Shown: positions 7,035 to 64,000 of the stretch, piece by piece | How the letters are laid out: every line of letters begins with the position of its first letter | How positions within the stretch are numbered: the first letter of the stretch is position 1 | Assembly: GCF_044704955.1 (NCBI RefSeq) | Contig: NC_091995.1 | Coordinates: forward strand, 53,816,001 to 53,880,000 | DNA from: Pristiophorus japonicus | Taxonomy: Eukaryota | Reading direction: 5' to 3' | Length of the DNA stretch: 64,000 nt | Translations under genes and position numbers: made by a program | The notes under the pieces: generated by a model | The model's input: the letters and a program-made list of their open reading frames with translations, nothing else | Told to the model about the DNA's origin: nothing | Database searches by the model: none

Positions 7035-8247
7035 TCATTCCCCCCACCAAAGTCAAAGTGAAAACTATTTACAAGGTGAGGCGGTCGGGAGCCTTTCTTT
7101 CCCTGGTGGACCGCCTCAGTACAAGTGTCTGTTCTGGTGTGTTGGGCTGTGCCCTCGTTGGGCTGGCGTGTTGTTGTCCCTGCAGGGCTGCTGGGTGAGC
7201 CTAGCCTTGCTGGGCTGTTGGGCGTGATGGGTTCGATTTCCTGGTCTGGCATGGTGTCGTTGATCCTTTGGGTGTGTGTTGTGGGCTCGTAAAAGGTGGT
7301 GTCTGCTGTGGGTTGTTCAGGGCGGTCTGTGAACCGCAGCCTCGTTTGGTCCAGGTGCTTTCTGCAAATTTGTCCATTGTCTAGTTTGACTACAAACACC
7401 CTACTCCCTTCTTTAGCTATCACCGTGCCCGCGATCCACTTGGGACCATGTCCATAGTTTAGCACATACACAGGGTGATTCAGATCAATTTCCCGTGACA
7501 CAGTGACGCGACCATCATTTACATTTTGTTGCTGCCGCCTGCTCGCTACCTGATCATGCAGGTTGGGGTGAACCAGCGAGAGGCTGGTTGTAAGTGTCCT
7601 TTTCGTGAGTAGCTCAGCCGGGGGCACCCCTGTGAGCGAGTGGGGTCTCGTGCGGTAACTGAGCAGTACTCGGGACAGGCGGGTTTGGAGTGAGCCTTCT
7701 GTGACTCATTTAAGGCTCTGTTTGATGGTTTGTACTCCCCGCTCTGCCTGCCCATTGGAGGCTGGTTTAAATGGGGTCGAGGTGACATGTTTGCTCCCAT
7801 TGCGGGTCATGAATTGTTTAAATTCGGCACTGGTGAAACATAGCCCGTTGTCACTGACCAGTCTGTCAGGCAGGCCGTGGATGGCAAACATGGCCCTCAG
7901 GCTTTCAATGGTGGTGGTTGCGGTGCTTCCTGACATTATTTCACATTCAATCCATTTTGAGAAAGTATCCACCACCACCAGGAACATTTTACCGAGAAAC
8001 GGGTCCGCATAGTCGACATGCATCCTCGACCATGGTCTGCAGGGCCAGGACCACAAACTTAGTGATGTCTCTGTGGGCGCATTGCTCAACTGAGCAAATA
8101 CGCTGCATTGCCGTACACAGGACTCTAAGTCAGAGTCGATACCGGGCCACCACACGTTGGATCTGGCTATCGCTTTCATCATTACTATACCCGGGTGTGT
8201 GCTGTGGAGATCCGAGATGAACATCTCCCTGCCCTTTTTTGGTAGCA

Positions 8248-8512
8248 TAGAAACATAGAAACATAGAAAATAGGTGCAGGAGTAGGCCATTCGGCCCTTC
8301 GAGCCTGCACCATCATTCAATGAGTTTATGGCTGAACATGCAACTTCAGTACCCCATTCCTGCTTTCTTGCCATACCCCTTGATCCCCCTAGTAGTAAGG
8401 ACTACATCCAACTCCTTTTTTAATATATTTAGTGAATTGGCCTCAACAACTTTTTGTGCTAGAGAATTCCACAGGCTTACCACTCTCTAGGTGAAGAAGT
8501 TTCTCCTCATCG
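8248..8512 (-). mobile_element. CR1 3'-end fragment inserted in Gypsy pol
   Basis: (TAGAAACA)n tail; 8-bp TSD TGGTAGCA at 8240-8247 and 8513-8520. Confidence 0.9.
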
Positions 8513-11451
8513 TGGTAGCACTACGCGGTTACCCCACAACAGGCAGTCTGCCTGAATGGACAGCTCGTCCTTTCGCCGCTGGAACGGCTTGATTGGCTCT
8601 TGCATTTCAACGGGGATGTTGGCCCAGCTCCCATGCACTCAGTTTTTTACTAGGGACAGCAGAGGATCTTGGCTGGTCCAAGTCCTAATCTGGCAGGCCG
8701 TGACAGGTGATTTATCATTTTCAAACGCTTCCATGACCATCAACAAGTCTGCGGGATGCGCCACCATCAACAAGTTTGCAGGCTGCGCCATTTCCACCCC
8801 CGTGGTGGGCAATGGTAGCCGACTGAGAGCATCCGCACAGTTCTCAGTGCCTGGTCTGTGGTGGATGGTATAGTTATATGCTGATAGCGCGAGTGCCTAC
8901 CTTTGTATGCGGGCTGAGGCATTAGTATTTATCCCCTTGTTTTCAGCGAACAGGGATATGAGGGGCTTGTGATCGGTTTCCAGCTCAAATTTGAGGCCAA
9001 ATAGTGACTGAAGCATTTTCTTTACCCCGAACACCCACGCTAATGCCTCTTTCTCAATCATGCTGTTGGCCCTCTCGGCCTTAGACAAACTCCTGAAGGT
9101 TGCAACTTCACTGCAACGTTAGCTTGTTCTAATCCGCACCCGACACCGCACGACAACGCGTCACATGCTAGCACAAGTCTTTTATACAGGTTATAAAATA
9201 CAAGCATCTTGTTGGAGCATAAAATGTTTCTAGCTTTCTCAAAAGCAATTACTTGTTTTTTTTCCCCATACCCAGTTCTCACCTTTGTGCAATAACACAT
9301 GTTGGGGCTCTAAAAGAGTGCTTAACCCCGGTAGAAAGTTACCAAAATAGTTGAGGAGTCCCAGGAACGACACAGCTCCGTGACGTTCTGTGGCCTGCGT
9401 GCTTTCCTGATGGCCTCTATCTTGGCGTGTGTGGGCTGAATGCCGTCCGCCACAATCTTTCTCCCAAAAACTCCACTTCTGTTGCCATGAAGATGCATTT
9501 CGACCTCTTCAACCGCAGCCCTAGGCGATCCAGTCGCTGGAGGACCTCCTCCAGGTTTTGTAGGTGCTCGGCGGTGTCCCGACCCGTGACCAATATGTCG
9601 TCCTGAAAGACCACCGTGCGTGGTACCGACTTGAGTAGGCTCTCCATGTTTCTCTGGAAGATCGCTGCAGCCGACCGAATTCCAAACGGGCATCTGTTGT
9701 AGGTGAACAGTCCCTTGTGCGTGTTGATGCAGGTGAGGCCGTTCAAAGACTCCTCCAGCTCCTGCGTCATGTAGGCCGAAGTCAGGTAGAGCTTGGTAAA
9801 CGTCTTGCCTCCTGCCAGCGTCGCAAATAGGTCGTCTGCCTTAGGTATTGGTCCTGTAGCAAGAAACGATTAATAGTTACTTTATAATCGCCGCAAATCC
9901 GGACCGTGCCATCACTTTTGAGTACTGGAACAATCGGGCTAGCCCACTCACTGAATTCCACTGGGGAGATGATGCCCTCGCGTTGTAGCCTATCCAGCTC
10001 GATTTCCACTCTCTCCCTCATCATGTGAGGTACCGCTCGCGCCTTGTGGTGAATGGGTCGTGCCTCTGGGACCAAGTGGATCCGCACCTTCGCCCCGGAA
10101 AAGTTTCCAATGCCTGGCTCAAAAAGGGAAGGAAATTTGTTAAGAACCTGGGTACATGAGGCCTCATCGACATGTGATAGCGCTCGGATGTCATCCCAGT
10201 TCCAGCAGATTTTGCCCAGCCAGCTCCTTCCAAGCAGTGTGGGACCATCGCCCAGGACAATCCAGAGTGGCAGTTCGTGCATCGTGCCCTCATAGGTGAC
10301 CTTGACCATGGCACTGCCCAGCACAGTAATGAGCTCTTTGGTGTACGTTCTCAGTTTCTTATGGATGGGGCTCAGGGCTCATCTGAGTGCCTTGTTGCAC
10401 CACAGTCTCTCAAACATCTTTTTACTCATGATGGATTGGTTAGCGCCAGTGTCCAGTTCTATAGCTACGGGTAAGCCATTCAATTTTACATTTAGCATTA
10501 TAGGTGGACATTTCGTCGAAAATGTGTGCACCCCGTGTACTTCAGCATCTGCCTCCTCTCTCTGAGGCTCGAAATTGCTTTGATCTACTATGGACCGACC
10601 TTCCTCTGCCACGTGGTGGTTAGCAGGTTTTGCAGAGCTTGCAGCTTGTTTGCAAGCTCGTTGGAGGTGCCCCATTGTTCCACAGCTCTTGCAAACATAC
10701 CCTTTGAAGCGGCATGAATAGGCTGAATGGAAGCCTCCACAACAAGATGTGAATTGCCTTGCAATCATCCTTTGTTGAGGATTCTGAGTCATCTGGGTCA
10801 CCTGAGACCTCTGGCAGTTGCAGACTCGTGGGTTCTGCCCTGTACATTTCTGCTCGCAAACACAGTTCCAGTTAATTTATGAACATTGCTAGCAGTTGTG
10901 TGCTGAGAGATTTGTTTGGTGTTATCACTGGTGGACATAAGCGCCAGTGCTATCGCAATGGCCTTACTGAGGGTCAGTTCTCTACAGTCAAAAGTTTTCG
11001 TAGGATGGTCTCGTGGCCAATTCCCAGTACAAAAAGCCTCTGCGCATTTGCTCCAGGTAGCCATCAAACTCACATTGTCCTGCAAGTCGCCTTAGCTTGG
11101 CGATGTAGCTTGCCACTTCCTGACCTTCAGATCGCTGGCACGTGTAGAACCGATACCTCGCCATCGGCACGCCCTCCCTCGGGTTAAGATGCTCCCAAAC
11201 CAGTGTACACAGCTCCTCATACAATTTATCTGTGGATTTCACCGGAGCCAGAAGATTCTTCATGAGGCTGTAGGTCAGTGCCCCGCAGACTGTGAGGAGG
11301 ACCGCTCTCCCTTTTGCAGCGCTTCCTTCTCCATCCAGCTCATTGGCTACAAAGTACTGGTCTAGAAGGTTGACATAGGCTTCCCAGTCCTCACCCTCCG
11401 AGAACTTCTCCAGGATGCCCACAGTTTGCTGCATCTTTGCGTTGGATTCGT

Positions 11452-23005: not shown

Positions 23006-23568
23006 GAATGGCATAGAATGACCAGTGTGGGACGTAGAAGATCTGATATGGAGGATAAGATAGCATCATACATTTTTACAAAGATTAATGTGTCCCAGCA
23101 ATGGGTACTGGACATGATTCATTCTGACAACCCTCAGGATAGAGCTGCAGAGTGGACAGGGAGTGTAAAGCACAAGAAGTCAAAGGAAAAGGCAGTCTGG
23201 CTCTTGTGCCTACAAAGCCAAGTCCGACTGCTCTGGCATCAGGTTGAGTGCCTCAAAGTGGGGCTGAGAGAGTCACAAGAGCAGTCTGTACCAGCGAAAG
23301 CTGAAGGGACATAAAGCCAGTTAAAGGACATTAAGGCCACATACAGGGTAGCTCGGAGTAGGAGCTACGAGGATTGTGACCATGGTCCTGATGAGGAAAG
23401 AATTAAGAACTTGACCCAAGCTTTGTCAGGACCCCGAGGCATGGTCTGACTTATGGTGCCGGGCAAACCGCGGGTTGAATGAGAAGGGCAGGAACCTCCA
23501 CCGGTACAAGAGACAGAAGCTCAGGTTAGGGTAGTCCCAACAGCACCAGAGGTGCAACTGAGACCGAT

Positions 23569-23933
23569 GACTGGACAGGTTAGATGCGGGAAGAATGTTC
23601 CCGATGTTGGGGAAGTCCAGAACCAGGGGACACAGTCTAAGGATAAGGGGTAGGCCATTTAGGATTGAGATGAGGAGAAACTTCTTCACTCAGAGAGTTG
23701 TTAATCTGTGGAATTCACTGCCGCAGAGAGTTGTTGATGCCAGTTTATTGGATATATTCAAGAGGGAGTTAGATATGGCCCTTACGGTTAGGGGGGATCA
23801 AGGGGTATGGAGAGAAAGCAGGAAAGGGGTACTGAAAGAATGATCAGCCATGATCTTATTGAATGGCGGTGCAGGCTCGAAGGGCCGAATGGCCTACTCC
23901 TGCACCTATTTTTCTATGTTTCTATGTTTCTAT
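23569..23933 (+). mobile_element. CR1 3' fragment inserted in ERV gag
   Basis: MFPMLGKSRTRGHSLR..; (TTTCTATG)n tail. Confidence 0.9.
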
Positions 23934-24221
23934 GTGTCCTCTGTGGCAGCAGAGATACGGCCCATCCACACCAAACCGCGACCAGGGACCGTGACAGAAT
24001 GATTACGTGGTCCCATTCACCACCCCTCAGTTACAGGCCATGGTTGCTGGTCTACCAAAGTTAAAACAGGATGGGGATCCCTCGGTTCACTTCATGGAAG
24101 TTGAGCAAGTAGTGGGGATTAATGGGTGTAATGATGACCAGACCCACAGGCTGATACTGTGTTCCCTGGATACAAAACTGTATCAGAACTTGTCCGCAGA
24201 CATGAAAGCGGGGTGAGGCAC

Positions 24222-25139
24222 CATCATCATAGGCAGTCCCTCGGAATCGAGGCAGACTTGCTTCCACTCCCAAAGTGAGTTAATTGATTGCTGAACAGTC
24301 CGATACGAGAGCCACAGACCCTGTTACAGGTGGGACAGACATTCATCGAGGGAAGGGGTCGGTGGGGCTGGTTAGCTGCGCGCTCCTTCCACTGCCTGCG
24401 CCTGGCCTCTTCACGCTCTTTGCGTTGAGACTCTAAGAGCTCAACGCCTTCCCGGATGCACTTTCTCCACCTCGGGCGGTCTGCGGCCAGGGTCTCCCAG
24501 GTGTCAGTGGTGATGTCGCACTTTACCAGGGAGGCTTTGAGGGTGTCCTTATAACGTTTCCGCTGTCCCCCTTTGGCTCGTTTACCACGAAGGAGCTCCG
24601 CATAAAGCATTTGCTTAGGGAGTCTCGTATCTGGCATGCGAACTATGTGAAGCTGATCGAGTGTGGTCAGTGCTTCAATACTGGGGATGTTAGCCTGGTC
24701 GAGGACACTAATGTTGGTGTGCCTGTCCTCCCAGGGGATTTGCAGGATCTTGTGGTGACATCGTTGGTGATATGTCTCCAGTGACTTGAGGTGCCTTCTA
24801 TACATCGTCCATGCCTCAGATTCATACAGGAGGGCGGGTATTACTACAGCCCTGTCGACCATGAGCTTGGTGGTAGATTTGAGGGCCTGGTCTTCAAACA
24901 CTCTTTTCCTCAGATGGCCGAAGGCTGCACTAGCACACTGGAGGCGATGTTGAATCTCCGCATCAATGTCGACCTTTGTTGATCAGAGGCTCCCGAGATA
25001 TAGGAAATGGTCCGCGTTGTCGAGGGCCGCGTCAAGGATCTTGATGATTGGAGGGCAGTACTGTGTGGTGGTGACAGGCTGGTGGAGCACCTTTGTCTTA
25101 CGGATGTTAAGCATAAGTCCCATGCTTTCATCTGCCTCA
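24222..25139 (-). mobile_element. RTE LINE 3' fragment inserted in ERV gag
   Basis: RTE C-terminal ORF 24227-24901 with CPTC finger, (ATG)n tail; 9-bp TSD GTGAGGCAC at 24213-24221 and 25140-25148. Confidence 0.92.
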
Positions 25140-25811
25140 GTGAGGCACAATAGAGGGGTTAAAGGAGGAAATCCTGAGAGTGATGGGGCAATACCCAGGG
25201 TAGTCTGTTCTCACAGGTAGAGCAGACCCTACAGTTGTCCGGCGAGGCGCCAGTTGCCTTTGCGGACAGGCTATGGCCAGTGTACGCGAGGGCAACTGGA
25301 GGGGTGTCAAACCATGCACAACTGATCGGGGCCCCCAGAAATCACTGGCTCAGGACCCTAATCGCGAACAGCTTGCCACGTGTTAAAGCCAAGGCTGAAG
25401 CATGGTTCGATGCCGACGACCCCACCAACACGGAGGCAGGCGTGCTCCGTAAGTTAGGACTGGCCTTTAAGACCAGCTGTGGGGAAGAGACCAAAAGTAA
25501 GAGTAGGATCTGCGCGATCAAGGTCAGTAAAGGGGATAGGAGGGAATGGTGTCAGGAGGGGCCCCACACTGATGTGTCTAAGACTTATTTTAGATGTGGA
25601 GAAACGGGGCACTGGAGACGGGACGGCCCGCTCCAGAAAACGGGACCCGGGAGGAAACCCCAGCCAACCGAGGCGAAAAGGGCGACCGAGGAAACCTTCG
25701 AGGTCCTGGTGGCAGCCCTCCGTACATGTGCTGGGGAAGGACAGAGGGAGGCTAGATGCTGTCGTGAGTAGCGTTGTGCCGACTGAGCCCGTATGCCCTC
25801 CTTCATCCTGA

Positions 25812-28800
25812 CTAGAATGTGCCCAGCCTCAGTACCTGTGTCCACTCCTCTATGATGAGTGGGGCAGGCCCTGTGTGAAGGTGGGGGTCGAGACGGTTCA
25901 GGGGAAGTATTTGGTGGACACCGGAGCTTCAAGCACGGTGGTCCACTCAAAGCACCCAACCAACTAGCCCCGGTCTAACAAGGTCCCATTGAGTTTAATG
26001 GGATTCACAGGGAGTGAGCAGGCAGGAGCGATGTCTAAACCCCTGAAAATACAGTCAGGGTCTCTCACCACCACGTAGGAGTGTGTGTTAATGAAATGGG
26101 AACAACCCGGGTGGGGAGTCTTCGGGTACGATTTTATGTTAGCACACAGGATCATTGTAGACATGAGGAATCACTGCCTATGGGGGGGCAGTCGGATCAG
26201 ACAAGGTGGAAGAGGTGGTAGTTATTCCCAGGGACAAGGGGGACAGGGATAGTGTCTGCACCATGAAACCCAAGGGGAGTTACAACCTGGAACAGTTGGT
26301 CAGTAACACCCCAGCCCAGTACCAGGTGGATGTGAGGAATAACCTCGCTGCATTCACCACCCACAAACAGATTGTGGACGGGTGACTGAAGTAGAGGTTT
26401 GGGTGGACGGGGGCCCTGTGTCACGGCCTCAGAAACAGTACAGTTTTCCCCGGGAAGCAGAGGCAGACCTGGAAACAGCGCTGGGATCCCTAGTACAACA
26501 GGGAGTGTTGAGAACGATTGCCACGCATGTGAACTCCCCACTCTGGCCGGTCAATAAACACGAACAGTTGTGGAGGGCCACTGTGGGCTATCGGGTCCTC
26601 AACAGCAACATCCCAGCTTGTGCGCCCAGAGTCGCGGCTGTCGCTGACCTGATCGGAAATATCCCAGCGACCGCGATATTTCCAACGGTTTCTGGTCCAT
26701 CCCACTCTGCTGGGAAGACCAGTATAAGTTTGCATTTACATTTAAAAACAACAGTATACTTGGATGTGTCTTCCCCAGGGTTTTCACAACAGCCCCTCCA
26801 TTTTCCACCAGAACATGGCCAATGCTCTGAAACAATTTAGCCAGCCCCAGCAGCTCATTCAGTATGTGGAAGACATTCTCCTTTTCTCTTCGGATAGAGA
26901 GGAGCACGGGCCACTGCTGGATGAGCTGCTCAAACTATTAAGGGAGGCGGGTTTTAAAGTTAACCCGAAGAAAGCACAGGTTGATCAGAAGGAGGTGAAA
27001 TTCCTCGGGCTGACTGTCAGAGCGGGTGAGAGGGCCATTGATGAAGCCAGGCGTAAGGCAATACAAGAGCTCCCAAAAACATATCGGGGGTCAGGTCTTT
27101 CCTGGGACTCACTGGTTGCTGCAGAGACTTCATTGAAGGGTATACAGCCACGGCAGCCCCTCTACTTCGGCTCCTCCGCAAGGGAGTCGAATGGGAGTGG
27201 GACCTCAATTGCCAAGAGGCATTCACTCGCCTAAAAAGGGATTTGCAGACAGCACCTGCGTTGGGTGTGATTAATCAAGGGGAAGAGTTCTCCCTGGAGG
27301 TAGTGGCCAGCGGGGATAGTTTGAGCATGGTGTTGCTCCAGGAGTGACAAGGCAGACTGAGACCCGTGGTCTACTCCTCCAGGGTTCTCATGGATGTCGA
27401 ACGGGGATATTCCAACTGCGAGAGGCATTTGCTAGCCACGCATTGGGCCTTAAAGCGCTCCCAGCTCTTTACAGGTTCATCCACTCTTACACTCCTCACC
27501 CGTCACACGCCCACGCAGATGCTGCTGGACGGCAGGATTAAGGATGGACAGTGAGCAGTTCTTGCATTGCTCACTGGTCCCTGCTGCTCTCACAGACAAA
27601 TCTGAGAATGCAGGGGTTGACCGAACCCAAGTTAGCAGCTAATATGATCTCCCCAGGGACAGCCCACACATGCACGGTGGAAGGGGTATGGGATGTGGAG
27701 GAGCGACTCAGGGCTGGGATACACCCGATGGGCCGGGACATCTATGTGGATGGGTCCAGCACCGCATCTGATGGGGAGCGTCCCACCGAGTGTGGGATCT
27801 ATGACCCAACAGCTAAAGTTGAGAAGGCCATAAAGCTCCCCAACACCATGAGCGCTCAGCACACCGAACTGGAAGCAGTGGCCTATGTGGTGACCCATCC
27901 CATCGGGTTCCCTACTCCATACATCATTTGCTCAGATTCAATGTTCACATGCAACTCCTGCACAGAATATTTGGCAATCTGGGCAAGGCGAGGTTTTAAG
28001 TCCACCGATGCACAAGGTTTTAGAGGCCACTGGCACTCGAGGGGATTACTAGATCCACAAGGTGAAACCTTACTCCAAAACGGAGCCGAGAGGGGAAAGG
28101 AACCAAAAGGCCGACGAGCTAGCCAAAAGGGGAGCTAGGGAGGGCATTTTATGGGATCCAGGTGGAGCAGGTCCAATAGCAGCGATCCGGGACAGGGGAG
28201 GCATGCAGGGGATAGCTCTGGCCCCAGATCTCAAACAGACACAGGCCCAGGACCCTGTTCTTAAAGCTGTCCTACTAGACAGAGAGAAAGGGGAAAATGT
28301 AGAGGGTGCTGCAGACATTTGCGTCCGGGACGGAATGCTTCAAGGGGGACCGGTGGGTGGTCCCAGCACAGCACCGAGAGGAATTCCTCCAGCTGGCCCA
28401 CAGGGGCCCAGGGGCGGGACACCTGGGGCCAGAAACGACTTGGCAGAGAGTAGAGGAGGCAGGGTGGCGGCCACAGCTGAGGGAGGATGTCCGGGACTTC
28501 TGTGCACATTTTCTGGTGTGCGCAGCAAACAATCCCGACCCCCAGCGCAGGAAGGCTCCCCTGGGACACACCAGGAGGATGGAGGGGCTGTGGTGATCAT
28601 TGCAGATCGATTTCATCGGGCCCCTACCCACCACTAAATCAGGTAATAAATACTGTTTATTTGGTGGACGTTTTTTTAAAGTGGGTTGAAGCCTTCCCTT
28701 GCCGAGCGGCCACAGCCCTGGCCACTGCTCGGATCCTGGTAAAGGAGGCATTCTCCAGGTGGGGGCTGTCCCAGGTCATGGAGTCCAACCAGGGAAGCCA

Positions 28801-29609
28801 CTTTACGGGTCAAGTGATGCAACCATCCTGAAACTCCTGGGGATAGAGGGGAAATGGCATGTGGCTCACAACCCTCAGTCATCAGGGATAGTGGAGCGCA
28901 TGAACCGGACCCTGAAGGAACAGTTGAGGAAGGAGGTGGGCCAGTTCCCAAAAACCCGGACGAGGTTTTGCCTCTGATTCTCATGGGGGTCCGACCCAGC
29001 CCCTCCAGGAGCACAGAGTACTCCCCTGATGAGCTGATGACCGGGAGGACCATGCGCACTCCAACCCATGTGTTGGTGCCGGTCCTCACCGAGACACAGC
29101 TCCGGGAGGTAGACCGGGATAAGTTTGTACAGCAGCTGTACAGTACTTTAAAACAAGTCCACATCCAGGCAGCCAACAGCCTGGGGAGGCAGCACCAACA
29201 CAATCGGCTGTTGCTAGAGTCTCAGTACACACATGAATGGGAGGTGGGGGACCAGGTAATGGTCTGTAATTATACCCGAGTGGGGGTGTTTGAGCCACTG
29301 TACATGGGGCCGTACATCATCGTTGACAAGGCGAGCCCCATGGTCTACGCAGTGAAGCTCCCCATATGCACGAAATGGTTCCACATCAACCAGTGCAAGC
29401 TGGTCAAGCCCGATGATGGAAGGACCAGGGCTAAAAGGCACCAGGGCACCACCATGAGCCTGGTGGAGGTGGGTCTCCCTCCCCTGATATGGGACAACGA
29501 TGACCCGGTAAAAGGGGCGGTAAGGAGGAGCAGTCTGATCCCACGGCCGAGGGTGCCGTGGTCACCTCCCTACTCGCCCACCACGAGCCGCAAGAGGCCC
29601 CGAGTGTAG
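25812..29609 (+). pseudogene. pol: ERV pol: protease, RT, tether (degenerate RNase H), RNase H, integrase with GPY/F
   Basis: LVDTGAS (DTG 25917-25925); NSPLWPVNK, LPQGFHNSPSIF, QYVED (26863-26874); RPVVYSSR..YSNCERHLLA; IYVDGS..SAQHTEL..SDS..NQKADELAK; [37 protein letters not shown]. Confidence 0.92.
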
Positions 29610-30676
29610 AGTCATGGGGCTCTCGAGCCCTGCGACTACCGGACCCACAGTCTATATAGTTTGTTTTACATTTTGTTTCGTTGTCAGTCTGTGTGTGTCC
29701 TGCTGCTTGTGTATAACCTGATGGAACTGTGGAGGAGAAAACTCTCTCACAGAACGGATTTTTGCTTGTGTTTTATGTTATAGGAAAGTAAGGAAGTCCA
29801 AGAACACCAAGGGAATGCCAGGAACGTTCGTTGTGGTCCTGTTCCTGAACTGGTTTGGGATCGGCAGCTTGGAGAGGGGAGACACTGAGGAGTCCGTCCT
29901 GTACGGCTGCACTGGGGGGAAAGGACCCAGCATGGTACGGGGGGGTAGGACTGGGGACACCGACGGTGTGGCAGCCTACTTCCATGAGGGAAGCTGGTCG
30001 GGGTGGCTGGGATCCAATTCCTCGCGGTATTCCAGCAGCAAGGCTTTCACGTATGGCGAAGCTTCCATCCCGTGCCCCGGGCTACAAGTCACGGCCACAC
30101 GGGTTAGGGTGACCGAGGGGAGGCGCGTATACTTGCAGTGTGAGGGACACATACCCCTGGGACGGTGGTGGTGGCTCAGGAAATTGAGCCAAGATAAAGG
30201 CAATCGATCCGTGGACTGGGAACAGCTGGGGAACGATGTGTACCGTCAGATTATGGGGACGAAGGGGAGCGTTGAAGTGTACTGGCACAAATGGTGGAAA
30301 GAAGAGGTCGGAATTTACGTGTGTATGTGGGGGTCTGAATGGGTCTGCCCTGTCGGTCGCGTTTTCACCACGGTGACAAGACTCCAGGACCGAGATCGGT
30401 TGGGGACGGAGTATGAACTCCTGTGTGATCCCAGACTCTCCAGATACCGTAAATTCCATGGAGTTGCTAGCACGCGAGGTAGAGCCCCTTCCCACAACCC
30501 ACCAGTACAGGACAGAGGTTAAATGCCCCACCACCACCCCGAAGCCAAGGAATGGGTTGGTGCTAGGCCCGACCGGCAAGATACTTTACCATGATGTGCA
30601 CTACTCGGTCACCTCGGTTATCTTAACCTGACCCAGGTTCACTGCCACGGTGGTGTCCTGCATAGACCGAAAGGCT

Positions 30677-31213
30677 TAGAAACATAGAAACATAGAAAAT
30701 AGGAGCAGTAGTAGGTCATTCGGCCCTTCGAGTCTGCACCGCCATTCAATATGATCATGGCTGATCCTCTCTCAACACCATATTCCCGCTTTTTCCCCAT
30801 ACCCCTTGATATCTTTTGTTTCTAGAAATCTATCTATCTCCCTCTTAAATATATTCAGTGACTTAGCCTCCACAGCCTTGTGTGGTAGAGAATTCCACAG
30901 GTTCATCACCCTCTGAGTGAAAACATTTCTCCTCATTTTGGTCCTAAATTTCTGAGATTGCGACCCCTTGTTCTAGACATCCCAGCCAGGGGAAACATCC
31001 TCCCCGCATCCAGTCTATCCAACCCAGTCATAATTTTATACGTTTCAATGAGATCCCCTCTCATTCTTCTAAACTCTAGTGAATACAGGCCTAGTCGACC
31101 CAATCTCTCCTCATACGACAGTCCTGCCATCCCAGGAATCAGTCTGGTGAACCTTTGCTGCACTCTCTCTATGGCAAGTATATCCTTTCTTAGGTAAGGA
31201 GAGCAAAACTGCA
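30677..31213 (-). mobile_element. CR1 3' fragment inserted in ERV env
   Basis: (TAGAAACA)n tail; ORF 30933-31214 matches the CR1 RT C-terminus; removing it rejoins ..TER-LYEALLKEMF. Confidence 0.9.
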
Positions 31214-32046
31214 CTACGAGGCTCTGCTTAAAGAAATGTTTAGGAAGTTCTATGAGTTAAGTTACGGTGGCGTGGATCAGAACAGTGTGTATGATCTGAC
31301 CTCAGGTCAGTGCGGGCGGTTGGGAAAGGTACAAACAGGGGCTGTTTAACGACGCAGCCACAGCATTTAGCACTGGCATGTCCATTGTTTACAGTATGGG
31401 CGATGCTCAGTTGCAAATGCAGGTAAATACCTTGAGGGATCGGTTGCACAAGATACTGCGAGAAGGTAACGTGATAGAGGGGTCAGAGTTACGGAAGGAT
31501 CAGGCTATGACCATCCATTTGAAGGAGATCATAGCCGAGCTGGAGGCACACGCTCAAACGATTAACAGTTGGATCCGAGAAGATCGGAATGCCTCAGCTC
31601 AGGTGGCAAGCTGTGTGTTGTACGGTGCTTGGCTGCTGAATGAAGGATGCAGTAATTGGGAGGACCTTCAACAAGGTCGCATTCCTTCATGGATCAGCAA
31701 CTGACACCTCACCGCGCTCAGCCCGTACAAAGGTTCCATGAGCCCTGTGCCAACTCCGACTCGCCTCAGAGGCTTACCCAGTCCCGGTAGATTGTGTCCG
31801 GTCCAACGCTACGGTAATGGGGGTTGTACTTCGGATGCCGGTGATGAGCGGGTCACCACGATTGGCACTGGTATACCGAGTACAGAACATCGGCGTTCTG
31901 AGGGACATCATGGGGTGCCACCGTTTGTTGTAAAGTGGGGATCCACCATGCCCGGCACTGACCTTACTGGGTGCCAGAGCAGGGGAGCACACGTGGTACT
32001 ATGTCCTCAGCATTTGTATTCTTTTGATCAACCGATGTGTGGGTTT

Positions 32047-32419
32047 GTGTGTGTGTGTGTAGAGACGTGATCGGGGCCCAGGGGAGGCGTGAGGTCGGGG
32101 CCAGGCCCAGGGGCAGCACGGGCCAGCCCACACTGCGATATGTGTGCACAGAGGTCCGTGCAGCAGAGCAGGTCTCCAGTCATCTTGGTTAACTCTTGCC
32201 ACTGGACCAAGACCTAGCTCTGTCAAGCCCATGTGGTGGCTGGTGTGCAACAGCCACCACACGTTACAAAAATCCACGCACAGGCATCTTCCACCCCTCA
32301 GGATGTAGTTCGTGACCTGGAATATTAGGTCCTGCATTGAAACACCTGTGAACTCATCCTTTTTTGGCGTGGAAGCAAGTCATCCTTGCTTCGAGGGACC
32401 GCCTATGAAGATGATGATG
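32047..32419 (+). mobile_element. Short non-autonomous RTE-tailed element (SINE-like) inserted in env
   Basis: 3' end GGAAGCAAGTCATCCTTGCTTCGAGGGACCGCCTATG..(ATG)n is shared with the local RTEs; 10-bp TSD GTGTGGGTTT at 32037-32046 and 32420-32429. Confidence 0.85.
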
Positions 32420-33371
32420 GTGTGGGTTTACATCAGAGGGTGCGGAGCCCATTAATTGCACCATGGAGGTGATGGCCCAGAGCCACGTTCCACCCCAGGT
32501 AGCTTACACAGGCGGAGGGACATACTGTATCACGACCAGCGTGACTCAGTACCGAGTGTGTAACCACACTTGGTGTCCAGTTACAGATCAGATCTTCTGT
32601 TTCAAACCCTACACCGAGGTCCAGATAGCCCAAGAACGTATTATCCCCATCGCGGAACCCGGTACTGATCACATCACGGTAAACGACACCATCCGCGATT
32701 TGTAGCGGTATGTAACTCAGTTTGGTAACGAGTTTCCACCTCTGCCCGAACACCTCACAAAACTACTCAAAGAGGTTGAACTATCCCAAAAACACTTTTA
32801 CATCCTGGTACAGCAGAACCGGGAAAGGGAAAGGAGATAAAACTGCTTGTATCTCCACCATGGTGGGACATTGGCGTTGACATCGAGGTCCCTCCATGGA
32901 TTTGGGTCATTTCTCATGTGTTGGTGTTAGCTCAATGTGTGATAACCGTGTACCTGATTCATTTATGCTGCAGAAAGCGTGGAAAGGTACTCAGAAATCA
33001 GCAGTTAGCGTTGATCGACAACCAGCCCGGAATTTGAAACGTCTCTTGCCTGTTCCCGCGGGATGTGTGTAAATACCTATATATTTCGTCTGGAGAATGT
33101 ATTTATGTATTTTCTGTCACTGTTTGTAAGGGCACTCAAACCCTGGCTGCTGACAGTTGATTAAAGTTTTGGCCATGGCGGTGAGTTGCCTGGTTTTAAA
33201 GGAACGTTGGTAATACCCTTTGTAAAGTGTGTTATAAACGTTATATGCTGTAACCGCAGAGGGGGACCCATGGGGAATAGGTAACTTCGGTTTGGGAGGG
33301 CTATCACGAGGCATTCTCCTCGGAAGGATGATATTTTCCCCGTGGAGGACAGTGTTAATATCAAAGGGGAG

Positions 33372-34195
33372 TCGACAAAGTCAACTCTGGACTGTTGTGT
33401 TTATATCCCTGTTGGCTGTACACCCTGAAAAGGACTTTTGAAATACTGTGACACAAGATGGCTGGTCTGGATTAGGAAGAAACCTGTTGCTGGGAGAAAC
33501 ATGTGGGGTGGGTCTCTCCCACAGAAACTGGTGAGAGAAGCTAGGTCTGTTCAAATGTTAATTTGAACACTGGCCTGGCAGCAGCCAATGGGTACTCTTA
33601 GGGAGGGCAAGGGACTCTTGTGTGTGGAACCAGGTTGTCTCGGGAAGATAGCAAGGAGCTAGGACAAGACCAACACCTGCATTATCTCCACAATGGTCCA
33701 GCAATCAGGACTGATGGGTCATTTAAAACCCACTCGGGAAGCCTTCGGACATCGATCGGCTGGCTTTGTTCTGACCCCACCACATCTCAGATAGCGCGGA
33801 ATAAGACCTGAAGGAGCCAGAGAGGTTCCCCGGAGGGAACAGAACCAGCCAAACCCAGCCAGAATTGTGGATTACAGGAGTATAACTGTTGAGCGTTTTG
33901 GAAGCTCTCTCTTCGTTCTATCGCATCCTACATGAAGGCACGTTTGTCCACCTCTCGAGGATAAGGACCGAGAGCCAAGCCTCTGCAACCCGACAGACTT
34001 CAACTTTAACCTGGATCTCGCATACTTCAGCCAAGCACGAGGCCATGGAGTCGAACCACTGAGGAAGGACCAGCGAGCAAGGAAGAGTGGATTGGGTGAG
34101 TACTCAATAGTTGCACGCTCAGCAACCGATCCACGAAAGTGCATGATGGGGTGTCAGTGTGCCCTAACCAAACCAGAGGGGTGTTTAGAGTTAAC
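33372..34195 (+). repeat. Putative 3' LTR of the ERV
   Basis: Follows the purine tract AAAGGGGAG (33363-33371); non-coding; ends ..TTAACA. There is no partner LTR in the window to confirm it. Confidence 0.4.
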
Positions 34196-37100
34196 ATAGA
34201 AACATAGAAACATAGAAAATAGGTGCAGGAGTAGGTCACTCAGCCCTTCTAGCCTGCACCGCCATTCAATGAGTTCATGGCTGAACATGAAACTTCAGTA
34301 CCCCCTTCCTGCTTTCTCGCCATACCCCTTGATCCCCCGAGTAGTAAGGACTTCATCTAACTCCCTTTTGAATATATTTAGTGAATTGGCCTCAACTACT
34401 TTCTGTGGTAGAGAATTCCACAGGTTCACCACTCTCTGGGTGAAGAAGTTTCTCCTCATCTCGGTCCTAAATGGCTTACCCCGTGTCCTCAGACTGTGAC
34501 CCCTGGTTCTGGACTTCCCCAACATTGGGAATATTCTTCCTGCATCTAACCTGTCTAAACCCGTCAGAATTTTAAACGTTTCTATGAGGTCCCCTCTCAT
34601 TCTTCTGAACCCCAGTGAATACAAGCCCAGTTGATCCAGTCTTTCTTGATAGGTCAGTCCCACCATCCCGGGAATCAGTCTGGTGAATCTTCGCTGCACT
34701 CCCTCAATAGCAAGAATGTCCTTCCTCAAGTTAGGAGACCAAAACTGTACACAATCCTCCAGGTGTGGCCTCACCAAGGCCCTGTACAACTGTAGCAACA
34801 CCTCCCTGCCCCTGTACTCAAATCCCCTCGCTATGAAGGCCAACATGCCATTTGCTTTCTTAACCGCCTGCTGTACCTGCATGCCAACCTTCAATGACTG
34901 ATGTACCATGACACCCAGGTCTCGTTGCACCTTCCCTTTTCCTAATCTGTCACCATTCAGATAATAGTCTGTCTCTCTGTTTTTACCACCAAAGTGGATA
35001 ACCTCACATTTATCCACATTATACTTCATCTGCCATGCATTTGCCCACTCACCTAACCTATCCAAGTCACTCTGTAGCCTAATAGCATCCTCCTCACAGC
35101 TCACACTGCCACCCAACTTAGTGTCATTCGCAAATTTGGAGATACTGCATTTAATCCCCTCGTCTAAATCATTAATGTACAATGTAAACAGCTGGGGCCC
35201 CAGCACAGAACCTTGCGGTACCCCACTAGTCACTGCCTGCCATTCTGAAAAGTACCCATTTACTCCTACTCTTTGCTTCCTGTCTGACAACCAGTTCTCA
35301 ATCCACGTCAGCACACTACCCCCAATCCCATGTGCTTTAACTTTGCACATTAATCTCTTGAGTGGGACCTTGTCGAAAGCCTTCTGAAAGTCCAAATATA
35401 CCACATCAACTGGTTCTCCTTTGTCCACTTTACTGGAAACATCCTCAAAAAATTCCAGAAGATTTGTCAAGCATGATTTCCCTTTCACAAATCCATGCTG
35501 ACTTGGACCTATCATGTCACCATTTTCCAAATGCGCTGCTATGACATCCTTAATAATTGATTCCATCATTTTACCCACTACTGAGGTCAGGCTGACCGGT
35601 CTATAATTCCCTGTTTTCTCTCTCCCTCCTTTTTTAAAAAGTGGGGTTACATTGGCTACCCTCCACTCGATAGGAACTGATCCAGAGTCAATGGAATACT
35701 CCAGGTGTGGCCTCACCAAGGCCCTGTACAACTGTAGTAACACCTCCCTGCCCCTGTACTCAAATCCCCTCGCTATGAAGGCCAACATGTCATTTGCTTT
35801 CTTAACCACCTGCTGTACCTGCATGCCAATCTTCAATGACTGATGTACCATGACACCCAGGTCTTGTTGCACCTCCCCTTTTCCTAATCTATCACCATTC
35901 AGATAATAGTCTGTCTCTCTGTTTTTACCACCAAAGTGGATAACCTCACATTTATTCACATTATACTTCATCTACCATGCATTTGCCCACTCACCTAATC
36001 TATCTAAGTCACTCTGCAGCCTCATAGCATCCTCCTCGCAGCTCACACTGCCACCCAACTTAGTGTCATCCACAAATTTGGATTATTATCTTTGAGGTCC
36101 TACTTTTTAATTTAACTCCTAGCTCACTAAATTCAGCTTGTAGGACCTCATCCCATTTTTTACCTATATCGGTACCTATATGCACCACGACAACTGGCTG
36201 TTCACCCTCGTCTAAATCATTAATGTACAATGTAAACAGCTGGGGCTCCAGCACAGAACCTTGCGGTACTCCACTAGTCACTGCCTGCCATTCTGAAAAG
36301 TACCCATTTAATCCTACTCTTTTCTTCTTGTCTGCCAACCAGTTCTCAATCCACGTCAGCACACTACCCCCAATCCCATGTGCTTTAACTTTGCACATTA
36401 ATCTCTTGTGTGGGACCTTGTCGAAAGACTTCTGAAAGTCCAAATACACCACATCAACTGGTTCTTCCTTGTCCACTCTACTGGAAAGATCCTCAAAAAA
36501 TTCCAGAAGATTTGTCAAGCATGATTTCCCTTTCACAAATCCATGCTGACTTGGACCTATCATGTCACCTCTTTCCAAATGCGCTGCGATGACATCCTTA
36601 ATAATTGATTCCATCATTTTACCCACTACTGAGGTCAGGCTGACCGGTCTATAATTCCCTGTTTTCTCTCTCCCTCCTTTTTTAAAAAGTGGGGTTACAT
36701 TGGCTACCCGCCACTCCATAGGAACTGATCCAGAGTCTATGGAATGTTGGAAAATGCTACTATAGCTCTCCCACTCTTTTTCCTGCCCTCCTGTGCAGCA
36801 TAACCACCCATGGTGCCATGAACTTGGCTGCTGCTGCCTTCCCCTGATGAGCCATCTCCCCCAACAGTATCCAAAGTAGTATATCTGTTTTGAGGGAGAT
36901 GACCGCAGGGGACCCTTGCACTACCTTCCTACTCCTGCCCTGCCTGATGGTCACCCATTCCCTATCTGACTGTGTAACCTTTACCTGCGGTGTGACCAAC
37001 TCACTAAACGTGCTATTCACGACATCCTCAGCATCGCGGATGCTCCAGAGTCAATCCATGCGCAGCTCCAGCTCCGCAATGCGGTCTGACAGGAGCTGCA

Positions 37101-57552: not shown

Positions 57553-60500
57553 TGTGACAGTTTGAACTGGTGCTCTCCACTCTCTGTCCTGTGACAGTTT
57601 GAACTGGTGCTCTCCACTCTCTGTCCTGTGACAGTTTGAACTGGTGCTCTCCACTCTCTGTCCTGTGACAGTTTGAACTGGTGCTCTCCACTCTCCCGTC
57701 CTGTGACAGTTTGAACTGGTGCTCTCCACTCTCTGTCCTGTGACAGTTTGAACTGGTGCTCTCCACTCTCCCGTCCTGTGACAGTTTGAACTGGTGCTCT
57801 CCACTCTCTGTCCTGTGACAGTTTGAACTGGTGCTCTCCACTCTCTGTCCTGTGACAGTTTGAACTGGTGCTCTCCACTCTCCCGTCCTGTGACAGTTTG
57901 AACTGGTGCTCTCCACTCTCTGTCCTGTGACAGTTTGAACTGGTGCTCTCCACTCTCCCGTCCTGTGACAGTTTGAACTGGTGCTCTCCACTCTCTGTCC
58001 TGTGACAGTTGGAACTGGTGCTCTCCACTCTCTGTCCTGTGACAGTTTGAACTGGTGCTCTCCACTCTCTGTCCTGTGACAGTTTGAACTGGTGCTCTCC
58101 ACTCTCTCTCCTGTGACAGTTGGAACTGGTGCTCTCCATCTCTCTGTCCTGTGACAGTTTGAACTGGTGCTCTCCACTCTCTGTCCTGTGACAGTTTGAA
58201 CTGGTGCTCTCCACTCTCTCTCCTGTGACAGTTTGAACTGGTGCTCTCCACTCTCTCTCCTGTGATAGTTTGAACTGGTGCTCTCCACTCTCCGTCCTGT
58301 GACAGTTTGAACTGGTGCTCTCCACTCTCTCTCCTGTGATAGTTTGAACTGGTGCTCTCCACTCTCCGTCCTGTGACAGTTTGAACTGGTGCTCTCCACT
58401 CTCTGTCCTGTGACAGTTGGAACTGGTGCTCTCCACTCTCTGTCCTGTGACAGTTTGAACTGGTGCTCTCCACTCTCTGTCCTGTGACAGTTTGAACTGG
58501 TGCTCTCCACTCTCTGTCCTGTGACAGTTAGAACTGGTGCTCTCCACTCTCTGTCCTGTGACAGTTGGAACTGGTGCTCTCCACTCTCTGTCCTGTGACA
58601 GTTTGAACTGGTGCTCTCCACTCTCTGTCCTGTGACAGTTAGAACTGCTGCTCTCCACTCTCTGTCCTGTGACAGTTTGAACTGGTGCTCTCCACTGTCT
58701 GTCCTGTGACAGTTGGAACTGGTGCTCTCCACTCTCTGTCCTGAGACAGTTGGAACTGGTGCTCTCCACTCTCCCGTCCTGTGACAGTTTGAACTGGTGC
58801 TCTCCATTCTCCCATCCTGTGACAGTTGGAACTGGTGCTCTCCACTCTCCCGTCCTGTGACAGTTTGAACTGGTGCTCTCCACTCTCTGTCCTGTGACAG
58901 TTTGAACTGGTGCTCTCCACTCTCTGTCCTGTGACAATTTGAACTGGTGCTCTCCACTCTCTCTCCTGTGACAGTTTGAACTGGTGCTCTCCACTCTCTG
59001 TCCTGTGACAGTGTGAACTGGTGCTCTCCACTCTCTGTCCTGTGACAGTGTGAACTGGTGCTCTCCACTCTCCCGTCCTGTGACAGTTTGAACTGGTGCT
59101 CCCCACTCTCCCGTCCTGTGACAGTTTGAACTGGTGCTCTCCACTCTCCCGTCCTGTGACAGTTTGAACTGGTGCTCTCCACTCTCTGTCCTGTGACAGT
59201 TTGAACTGGTGCTCTCCACTCTCTGTCCTGTGACAATTTGAACTGGTGCTCTCCACTCTCTCTCCTGTGACAGTTTGAACTGGTGCTCTCCACTCTCTGT
59301 CCTGTGACAGTGTGAACTGGTGCTCTCCACTCTCTGTCCTGTGACAGTGTGAACTGGTGCTCTCCACTCTCCCGTCCTGTGACAGTTTGAACTGGTGCTC
59401 CCCACTCTCCCGTCCTGTGACAGTTTGAACTGGTGCTCTCCACTCTCTGTCCTGTGACAGTTTGAACTGGTGCTCTCCACTCTCTGTCCTGTGACAGTTG
59501 GAACTGGTGCTCTCCATCTCTCTCCTGTGACAGTTTGAACTGGTGCTCTCCACTCTCTGTCCTGTGACAGTTTGAACTGGTGCTCTCCACTCTCTGTCCT
59601 GTGACAGTTTGAACTGGTGCTCTTCACTCTCCCGTCCTGTGACAGTTTGAACTGATGCTCTCCACTCTCGGTCCTGTGACAGTTTGAACTGGTGCTCTCC
59701 ACTCTCCCGTCCTGTGACAGTTTGAACTGGTGCTCTCCACTCTCCCGTCCTGTGACAGTTTGAACTGGTGCTCTCCACTCTCTGTCCTGTGACAGTTTGA
59801 ACTGGTGCTCTCCACGCTCTGTCCTGTGACAGTTGGAACTGGTGCTCTCCACTCTCCCGTCCTGTGACAGTGTGAACTGGTGCTCTCCACTCTCTGTCCT
59901 GTGACAGTTTGAACTGGTGCTCTCCACTCTCTGTCCTGTGACAGTGTGAACTGGTGCTCTCCACTCTCTGACATGCGACAGTGTGAACTGGTGCTCTCCA
60001 CTCTCTGTACTGTGACAGTTTGAACTGGTGCTCTCCACTCTCTGTCCTGTGACAGTTTGAACTGGTGCTCTCCACTCTCTGTCCTGTGACAGTTTGAACT
60101 GGTGCTCTCCACTCTCCCGTCCTGTGACAGTTTGAACTGGTGCTCTCCACTCTCTGTCCTGTGACAGTTGGAACTGGTGCTCTCCACTCTCTGTCCTGTG
60201 ACAGTTGGAACTGGTGCTCTCCATCTCTCTCCTGTGACAGTTTGAACTGGTGCTCTCCACTCTCTGTCCTGCGACAGTTTGAACTGGTGCTCTCCACTCT
60301 CCCGTCCTGTGACAGTTTGAACTGGTGCTCTCCACTCTCTGTCCTGTGACAGTTAGAACTGGTGCTCTCCACTCTCTGTCCTGTGACAGTTTGAACTGGT
60401 GCTCTCCACTCTCTGTCCTGTGACAGTTTGAACTGGTGCTCTCCACTCTCTGTCCTGTGACAGTTGGAACTGGTGCTCTCCATCTCTCTCCTGTGACAGT

Positions 60501-63500: not shown

Positions 63501-64000
63501 CAGTGTGAACTGGTGCTCTCCACTCTCCCGTCCTGTGACAGTTTGAACTGGTGCTCCCCACTCTCCCGTCCTGTGACAGTTTGAACTGGTGCTCTCCACT
63601 CTCTGTCCTGTGACAGTTTGAACTGGTGCTCTCCACTCTCTGTCCTGTGACAGTTGGAACTGGTGCTCTCCATCTCTCTCCTGTGACAGTTTGAACTGGT
63701 GCTCTCCACTCTCTGTCCTGTGACAGTTTGAACTGGTGCTCTCCACTCTCTGTCCTGTGACTGTTTGAACTGGTGCTCTCCACTCTCCCGTCCTGTGACA
63801 GTTTGAACTGATGCTCTCCACTCTCGGTCCTGTGACAGTTTGAACTGGTGCTCTCCACTCTCCCGTCCTGTGACAGTTTGAACTGGTGCTCTCCACTCTC
63901 TGTCCTGTGACAGTTTGAACTGGTGTTCCCCACTCTCTGTCCTGTGACAGTTTGAACTGATGCTCTCCACTCTCTGTCCTGTGACAGTGTGAACTGGTGC
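57553..64000. repeat. 37-bp satellite (TGTGACAGTTTGAACTGGTGCTCTCCACTCTCTGTCC)n, running off the window end
   Basis: More than 6.4 kb of tandem units; blocks of variant units recur (60140/61214, period 1074). Confidence 0.97.

Follow-up and report, generated by a model that had tools for sequence, protein, structure and literature searches.

The stretch of DNA considered here (the window) comprises 64,000 nucleotides of the Pristiophorus japonicus genome (assembly GCF_044704955.1, contig NC_091995.1, positions 53,816,001 to 53,880,000 of the forward strand) and contains an endogenous retrovirus (ERV) with the remains of gag, pol and env (Table 1). This copy is a dead provirus, broken by frameshifts and by four insertions, three of them fragments of long interspersed nuclear elements (LINEs). 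It belongs to a family with many members in the host genome, and we regard it as highly probable that the reverse transcriptase (RT) and integrase (IN) of this family belong among the canonical retroviruses, probably within the snakehead retrovirus (SnRV) group or close beside it, and that its envelope protein (Env) is, as predicted, of the paramyxovirus F type (class Ib). The sequence-only reading of the same DNA had assigned the element to the lokiretroviruses (Loki) or to a new relative of them; the features on which it drew were confirmed, the assignment was not.

Domains were checked with Pfam on the window's own reading frames, and proteins of sibling copies were mapped onto the window by tblastn. 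The sibling proteins align colinearly with 23033-33025 as 19 separate pieces (3 in gag, 10 in pol and 6 in env), broken by stops and shifts of frame, which bears out the gag-pol-env order. RVT_1 is matched (E 3e-21) in the 26746 frame, which carries LPQGFHNSP and YVED, and NSPLWPV is found in the 26343 frame; siblings read YVDD, from which YVED had been supposed to derive. Two RNase H-type domains had also been recognised, and both exceed the cut-off (RT_RNaseH_2, the tether, E 5e-8; RNase_H, E 4e-9), as does Integrase_H2C2 (E 3e-13). Matches of the window frames to zf-CCHC, Ig_3 (E-values in Table 1) and rve (E 0.014) fall under it. The CCHC finger, a remnant here, is above the cut-off in sibling Gag, and the coiled-coil call for the Gag N-terminal region is based on weak Pfam coiled-coil matches in sibling Gag. 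The four insertions reported earlier were recovered, two of them interrupting gag and two env. The RT element at 34295-35971, to which insertion 1 is related, matches RVT_1; we take both to be of the CR1 type, and insertion 2 is presumably RTE-like, with no Pfam match behind that label. Siblings carry a furin-type site (RQRR/RQKR), which has decayed in the window copy. No 5' long terminal repeat (LTR) was found within the window, nor a second copy there of the 3' LTR; positions 33351-34181 of the latter are 84% identical to the sequence upstream of gag in sibling L045.

Table 1. Parts of the degenerate provirus, with positions counted from the first nucleotide of the window.
Feature	Position	Strand	Basis
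gag N-terminal part (coiled-coil region), broken; LINE upstream, 5' LTR and leader missing	23015..23568	+	85-89% to old-subfamily siblings; 31% amino acid identity to sibling Gag, 2 stops
Insertion 1: 3' fragment of CR1-type LINE (presumed type) with short tandem tail	23569..23931	+	85% to CR1-type RT element at 34295-35971
gag capsid-region piece	23932..24224	+	47% amino acid identity to sibling Gag
Insertion 2: LINE 3' fragment with target-site duplication	24225..25141	-	Without Pfam match
gag C-terminal part, CCHC remnant ~25589-25624	25142..25808	+	zf-CCHC E 0.0055; tblastn
gag-pol junction: one in-frame TGA, then CTAG (putative readthrough signal)	25809..25815	+	Identical junction in 3/3 young siblings
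pol, broken: protease ~25824-26150, RT 26343-27099, tether 27072-27548	25812..29609	+	Pfam; tblastn
pol continued: RNase H ~27740-28015, integrase 28339-29480	within 25812..29609	+	Pfam; tblastn
env 5' part: hydrophobic leader and weakly Ig-like domain at the N-terminus, beginning of F-like core	29815..30677	+	Ig_3 E 0.042; profile; tblastn
Insertion 3: 3' fragment of CR1-type LINE	30678..31214	-	
Middle of env: cleavage site (eroded), fusion peptide/heptad region and F-like domains rich in beta structure	31215..32046	+	Profile; tblastn
Insertion 4: short interspersed repeat, 10-bp target-site duplication	32047..32419	.	
env 3' part: second heptad and transmembrane helix, with a short tail	32420..33037	+	
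3' LTR, incomplete, cut by CR1-type LINE at 34194	33125..34193	+	Start probably at TGT

Gag and pol share one frame across TGA-CTAG in the window copy and in all three young copies described below. The TGA-CTAG context is a known readthrough signal, and on this basis we infer that UGA-CUA is read through to give Gag-Pol. At the SnRV junction an in-frame TAG stands instead of TGA. Since gag and pol are also in frame in one Loki-type locus (L087), a shared frame with one stop is not diagnostic for the SnRV clade.

Searches of the host genome (5.92 Gb) gave at least 150 scored matches at 78-100% identity for a 110-amino acid piece of RT and at least 101 matches at 96-100% for a piece of the sibling Env, the query counted in both cases. 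Three of the ten copies fetched belong to the old subfamily of the window copy, from which they differ by a Kimura two-parameter (K2P) distance of 0.096-0.104. Three others form a young env-carrying subfamily, approximately 68% identical in pol to the old one, and four (L035-L038, L047-L050) have paired LTRs and long pol frames without env. The sequence-only reading had called for a search for intact copies: copies proved numerous, and none of the ten fetched has gag, pol and env all open. The young copies have TG...CA LTRs of approximately 1.3 kb each. Among the six LTR pairs a 4-bp target duplication is exact in one, has one mismatch in another and is not evident in the rest; in four of these copies the primer site is the complement, with at most one mismatch, of a host tRNA-Arg(CCG) gene, in one it is a variant and in one unreadable. 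The distance between paired LTRs is 0.0015-0.0023 in two young copies and 0.012-0.044 in the four env-less ones. With rates of 2.2e-10 and 5e-10 per site per year, as assumed in PMC4422223 and PMC10699275, the young copies would be roughly 1.5-5 Myr old, the env-less ones 12-100 Myr and the old wave at most about 100-230 Myr. Invasion of the germ line probably took place in more than one wave, with an old wave, env-less copies and a recent env-carrying burst. The LTRs of the young copy L031/L032 are 99.8% identical and lack a target-site duplication, possibly owing to recombination between copies.

For the placement of RT and IN, the reference rows comprised Loki-type loci and proteins, SnRV, foamy viruses, walleye viruses and class II viruses. 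Loki rows were assigned by their match to published RT rows and the SnRV reference (10,688 nt) by its published RT row; rows without a name were labelled by their motifs. RT trees of 254 columns were built with FastTree (87 rows) and IQ-TREE (LG+G4, 55 rows; LG+C20, 42 rows) after near-duplicates and surplus outgroups had been removed, and the IN tree holds 46 of 69 rows, without the window copy, whose IN pieces are too short. All three RT trees place the family inside the canonical retroviruses (100/98 with LG+G4, 100/97 with LG+C20). The Loki rows form a separate clade (100/99) in the IQ-TREE trees, and a clade joining the family with Loki is rejected by the approximately unbiased (AU) test (p=0.006). 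The family also lies outside Gypsy (Metaviridae) with 100/99 in both IQ-TREE trees, and nesting there, which had been named in advance as a ground for abandoning the Loki assignment, was not found. In the IN tree the family falls in a clade of canonical rows (95/87) that excludes Loki.

The RT of the family is 51-53% identical to frog and coelacanth pols, 44% to SnRV, 36-39% to Loki and 35-36% to foamy viruses. The rows closest to it are pols of frogs, coelacanth and turtle, several of these with the annotation 'NYNRIN-like', and a search of viral contigs with RT found no relative. The frog and coelacanth proteins so annotated are themselves ERV pols of this group. The family RT reads ACAPTV and LPQGFHNSP like the SnRV row and lacks the signatures of the Loki RT rows in the Wang and Han dataset, namely VPLSRWPM and CPFGY.NSP.(E/D)FNIFL in fish, lamprey and coelacanth (PMC7947760); the frog Loki rows of that dataset have related but different motifs. 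RT begins at approximately residue 208 of Pol in the family versus 638 in Loki, where the region before RT is much longer.

A true lokiretrovirus would be the first in a cartilaginous fish, and as such new, since Loki was found in none of six chondrichthyan genomes (PMC7947760). Our literature search, which covered few subscription papers, met no report of Loki in chondrichthyans, and no chondrichthyan term occurs in the supplement of PMC9040795. The family shares with Loki the gag-pol-env order, the tether plus RNase H, the coiled-coil Gag, a similarity in IN and an F-like Env to which Loki Env is the best-scoring named relative. The sibling Env has the traits by which Loki Env is defined (relation to Mononegavirales F, an RXKR site, here R-X-K/R-R, coiled coil and transmembrane helix), the site being eroded in the window copy. 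The coiled-coil Gag, CCHC finger and tether plus RNase H, on which the sequence-only reading relied, are common to SnRV as well, and the dual RNase H is therefore not diagnostic for Loki. With RT and IN outside the Loki clade, the RT signatures missing and the position of RT in Pol different, lokiretrovirus identity is refuted on its defining RT criterion by the present trees, and we find it barely credible. No smc-like gene was seen in the family, another difference from Loki, and an exact Loki RT motif had no match in the host genome, a result for one pattern that does not show Loki to be absent there.

Several observations tell against so definite a placement. IN of the family is 40-45% identical to Loki versus 37% to SnRV. 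FastTree alone joins the family and its kin with SnRV; in both IQ-TREE RT trees SnRV and the family, frog, coelacanth and turtle rows form a basal grade or polytomy, so that 'SnRV clade' is used as the most fitting name for a grouping that the trees do not establish. The trees were built without fish foamy-like ERVs (FLERVs), CmiERV lineage I (CmiERV-I) and Odin (amphibian Loki and CGIN1 are also absent), and a clade of the family with foamy viruses is not rejected (AU p=0.09). The family and its frog, coelacanth and turtle kin might accordingly be a separate early lineage or grade at the base of the canonical retroviruses, as their basal position with SnRV not as sister, a long stem (0.5) and an IN nearer by similarity to Loki than to SnRV would suggest. 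We think this unlikely: the best BLAST neighbours of SnRV are these same rows, the layout is common to both and the alignment has only 254 columns; moreover, CmiERV-I was grouped with SnRV by Han 2015 (PMC4422223), and an SnRV-related clade Huo was recovered across vertebrates by Xu 2018. That the family is an FLERV is very improbable. An F-type Env is common to it and the foamy viruses, shark FLERVs exist (PMC5512871), and the AU test does not reject a clade of the two (p=0.09), which none of the RT trees built recovers. RT identity to foamy viruses is low, and the rows of AciFLERV, ZFERV-2 and CoEFV differ by eye (the comparison was made without a CmiFLERV row). Foamy viruses have a Gag without CCHC and a Pol not made as a Gag-Pol fusion, in contrast to the CCHC finger and in-frame gag-pol stop of the family.

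The closest named systems are SnRV, which together with related ERVs makes up the SnRV clade or clade Huo (PMC12193657, PMC6001957), and CmiERV-I of the elephant shark. SnRV resembles the family in its coiled-coil Gag, single CCHC finger, gag and pol in frame across one stop, tether plus RNase H and RT motifs. Similarity in Gag is confined to the finger; the SnRV Env frame has 1134 codons versus 777 amino acids in the family, its Env tail is 136 amino acids long versus a short one, and no accessory open reading frames like the spliced ones of SnRV were recognised in the family. CmiERV-I shares the chondrichthyan host, one CCHC finger and a gag ending in TGA (PMC4422223), and its RT motifs, read by eye in the supplementary DNA, match (THKHDCG, NSP.WPVRKPD, ACAP.V, LDISNGFWSIP, LPQGFHNSP). 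It differs in its gamma-type Env (immunosuppressive domain, ISD, plus CX6CC), another primer site and A+T-richness. As CmiERV-I was grouped with SnRV, SnRV-like ERVs were already known from cartilaginous fish.

The env of one sibling is a natural frame of 796 codons, giving 777 amino acids from the first Met, with a hydrophobic leader, a weakly Ig-like region, RQRR, a glycine-rich hydrophobic segment, heptads and a transmembrane helix. A phmmer search of this protein against 1.84 billion representatives gave 47 matches. Ten were looked up and eight had names: five shark (Mustelus, Chiloscyllium, Heterodontus twice and Pristiophorus) and three frog (Pelodytes, Mantella and Xenopus). The nearest named Env relatives come from skate (54%) and shark gene models (60-71%), and two exons of a horn-shark host gene were matched at 80-85%, in a comparison confined to that species. 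The cartilaginous-fish host suspected from the sequence is likely, and more precisely a shark. In shark gene models env pieces are fused to Niban, cadherin, fbxo15 and an unnamed zinc-finger protein, probably as annotation chimeras.

An AlphaFold2 model of the sibling Env from a 34-row alignment reached a pLDDT of 73.9 and a pTM of 0.54 (pLDDT only 33 from the single sequence). All Foldseek matches listed for the model in the PDB are paramyxo- or pneumovirus F proteins (top E 1.6e-10), and ranks 1-13 in VIA are all such F proteins or foamy Env (Z 12.3-7.1; 12.3 to Newcastle disease virus F, 8.1 to 8rm0). In BFVD it matches insect mononegavirus and baculovirus F as well as Env of walleye epidermal hyperplasia virus 1 (E 8e-10), walleye dermal sarcoma virus (WDSV; 2e-6) and feline foamy virus (7e-5), and ESM Atlas assigns the sequence to the PF00523 cluster (0.93). 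A profile of the family Env detects foamy Env in the PDB with E 0.001. Named Env proteins score 48-58 (Loki), 23-27 (WDSV) and 4-20 bits (foamy) in the family profiles, with decoy maxima of 4-5; SnRV Env has 11 bits (best domain) in the first profile and is undetected by the second. Env pieces from the window itself reach 8-125 bits in the first profile and 10-58 in one made from distant members only. By prediction the family Env is therefore a class Ib fusogen of the paramyxovirus F type, in keeping with the earlier call of a non-orthoretroviral env. Its predicted core is common to foamy Env and paramyxo- and pneumovirus F, which are class Ib fusogens (PMC11468914). Identity to these is 10-15%; the extra domain of the family is N-terminal, not inserted, and an ordinary signal-peptide topology is likely, unlike in the foamy Env/F comparison set. 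Compared with Loki Env, the family has approximately 235 extra, weakly Ig-like residues ahead of the F core. Ig_3 has E 0.003 in the sibling Env, two of eight further Env proteins have sub-threshold Ig matches, and one relative carries an Ig-like label in UniRef.

Less favourable to the predicted fold and its Ig-like module are the following points. Fold and primer site were read from siblings, not from the window copy. PF00523 was not matched by Pfam scan in the sibling Env or in any of the 34 aligned members, and phmmer against the PDB gave chance-level matches only. In Foldseek the TM-scores reach only about 0.4, and root-mean-square deviations are large. The Ig-like call is under the Pfam cut-off in every protein, and in the Env proteins of SnRV, Loki, walleye and foamy viruses no match to an Ig-like profile exceeded the decoys. 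Finally, Loki Env outscores every other named Env in the family profiles.

The last point leads to the view that the family is a chimera of an SnRV-like gag-pol and an env captured from Loki or another F-bearing virus, in which case an F-type Env would not be ancestral in canonical retroviruses. Env swapping within the group is indicated by CmiERV-I, with its similar RT and its gamma-type Env (by eye), and Odin, the sister of Loki, lacks env (PMC9040795). Identity to Loki Env is, however, only about 24% over 148 amino acids, and Env proteins of this type are also known from sharks, a skate, frogs of three genera, a second family of the host genome (similar RT upstream at one of seven loci) and walleye and foamy viruses, so that several captures would be needed. 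We consider a chimera possible, though less likely than not; it would bear on where env came from and would leave unchanged the anatomy favoured here, a canonical RT and IN with an Env predicted to be F-type.

The reach of this Env type may extend to other retroviruses. SnRV Env is weakly similar to the family Env (BLAST E 4e-5; Fusion_gly cluster of the Atlas, 0.91, at rank 4) and may be F-like, on weaker evidence. The Env proteins of walleye dermal sarcoma and epidermal hyperplasia viruses match the F-like profile and model, which suggests that the Env of epsilonretroviruses belongs to class Ib and not to the gamma type.

In 30 of 30 young env copies, pN/pS is 0.17 for variants shared by at least two copies and 0.50 for singletons (Fisher p=0.007), both values being biased down since the copies are best protein matches. 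This is consistent with purifying selection on Env during amplification and with reinfection a few million years ago. The host genome also holds a second, old F-like env family, with an open frame of 786 codons at L119:1462-3819 (-), on host contig C18 near 30.17 Mb. Its Env has an RNKR site and is 42% identical to a Chiloscyllium protein and 28% to the window family; 45 other DNA matches have 80-93% identity. No retroviral RT lies in the 10 kb upstream of the open frame. Seven loci of the second family were checked for RT: five have none within 10 kb upstream, one has a Gypsy RT and one a retroviral RT similar to that of the window family. The open frame could be a co-opted env.

The life cycle of the family may be pictured as follows. 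Reverse transcription would be primed by tRNA-Arg, and Gag-Pol would be made by readthrough of UGA-CUA. Env would be a type I membrane protein, and cleavage at R-X-R/K-R would yield an F2-like part, with the N-terminal, probably Ig-like module as a putative receptor binder, and an F1-like part that would refold to bring about membrane fusion. Env-less copies would move by intracellular retrotransposition, and the recent env-carrying burst likely spread by reinfection; the window copy, approximately 10% diverged from its siblings, belongs to the old wave.

Elsewhere in the window there are a tandem array of a 37-bp unit in approximately 205 copies (11550 to ~19200), another repetitive tract, of strongly skewed composition, at the window end (58000-64000) and, on the minus strand at 7559-10108, what is left of the pol of a further LTR element (IN 30%, RT matches weak).

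An F-like Env was described by Wang and Han as a hallmark of Loki without detectable similarity to canonical Env, and independent env acquisitions were favoured or left open (PMC7947760, PMC9040795). Foamy Env was later shown to be F-like, with orthoretroviral Env put in a separate class Ia (PMC11468914); PMC13524379 still sets canonical Env against the F-like Env of Loki, and further retroviral F-like cases were expected by the Viro3D authors. The same literature search met no report of an F-like Env in SnRV-like ERVs or walleye viruses. As canonical RT and IN and an F-predicted Env occur in one element, the F-type Env is likely more widespread among retroviruses than reported, and an F-like env alone cannot identify a lokiretrovirus. 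An Env of the Loki and foamy type joined to a gag-pol of the SnRV type also bears on which Env is ancestral. We put forward, with confidence slightly short of even, that retroviruses ancestrally had an envelope of the F type (class Ib), that the shark, skate and frog Env family bridges Loki Env to foamy, walleye and snakehead Env, that gamma- and beta-type Env are later replacements, also inside the SnRV-like group, and that as recently as a few million years ago the spread of the family still went on through reinfection dependent on Env. With a far denser sequence set the origin of retroviral env becomes testable. The host genome preserves, for a single family, an old wave, an env-less one and a recent one with env, and, if Env-dependent spread was indeed so recent, an exogenous relative may still circulate in sharks.

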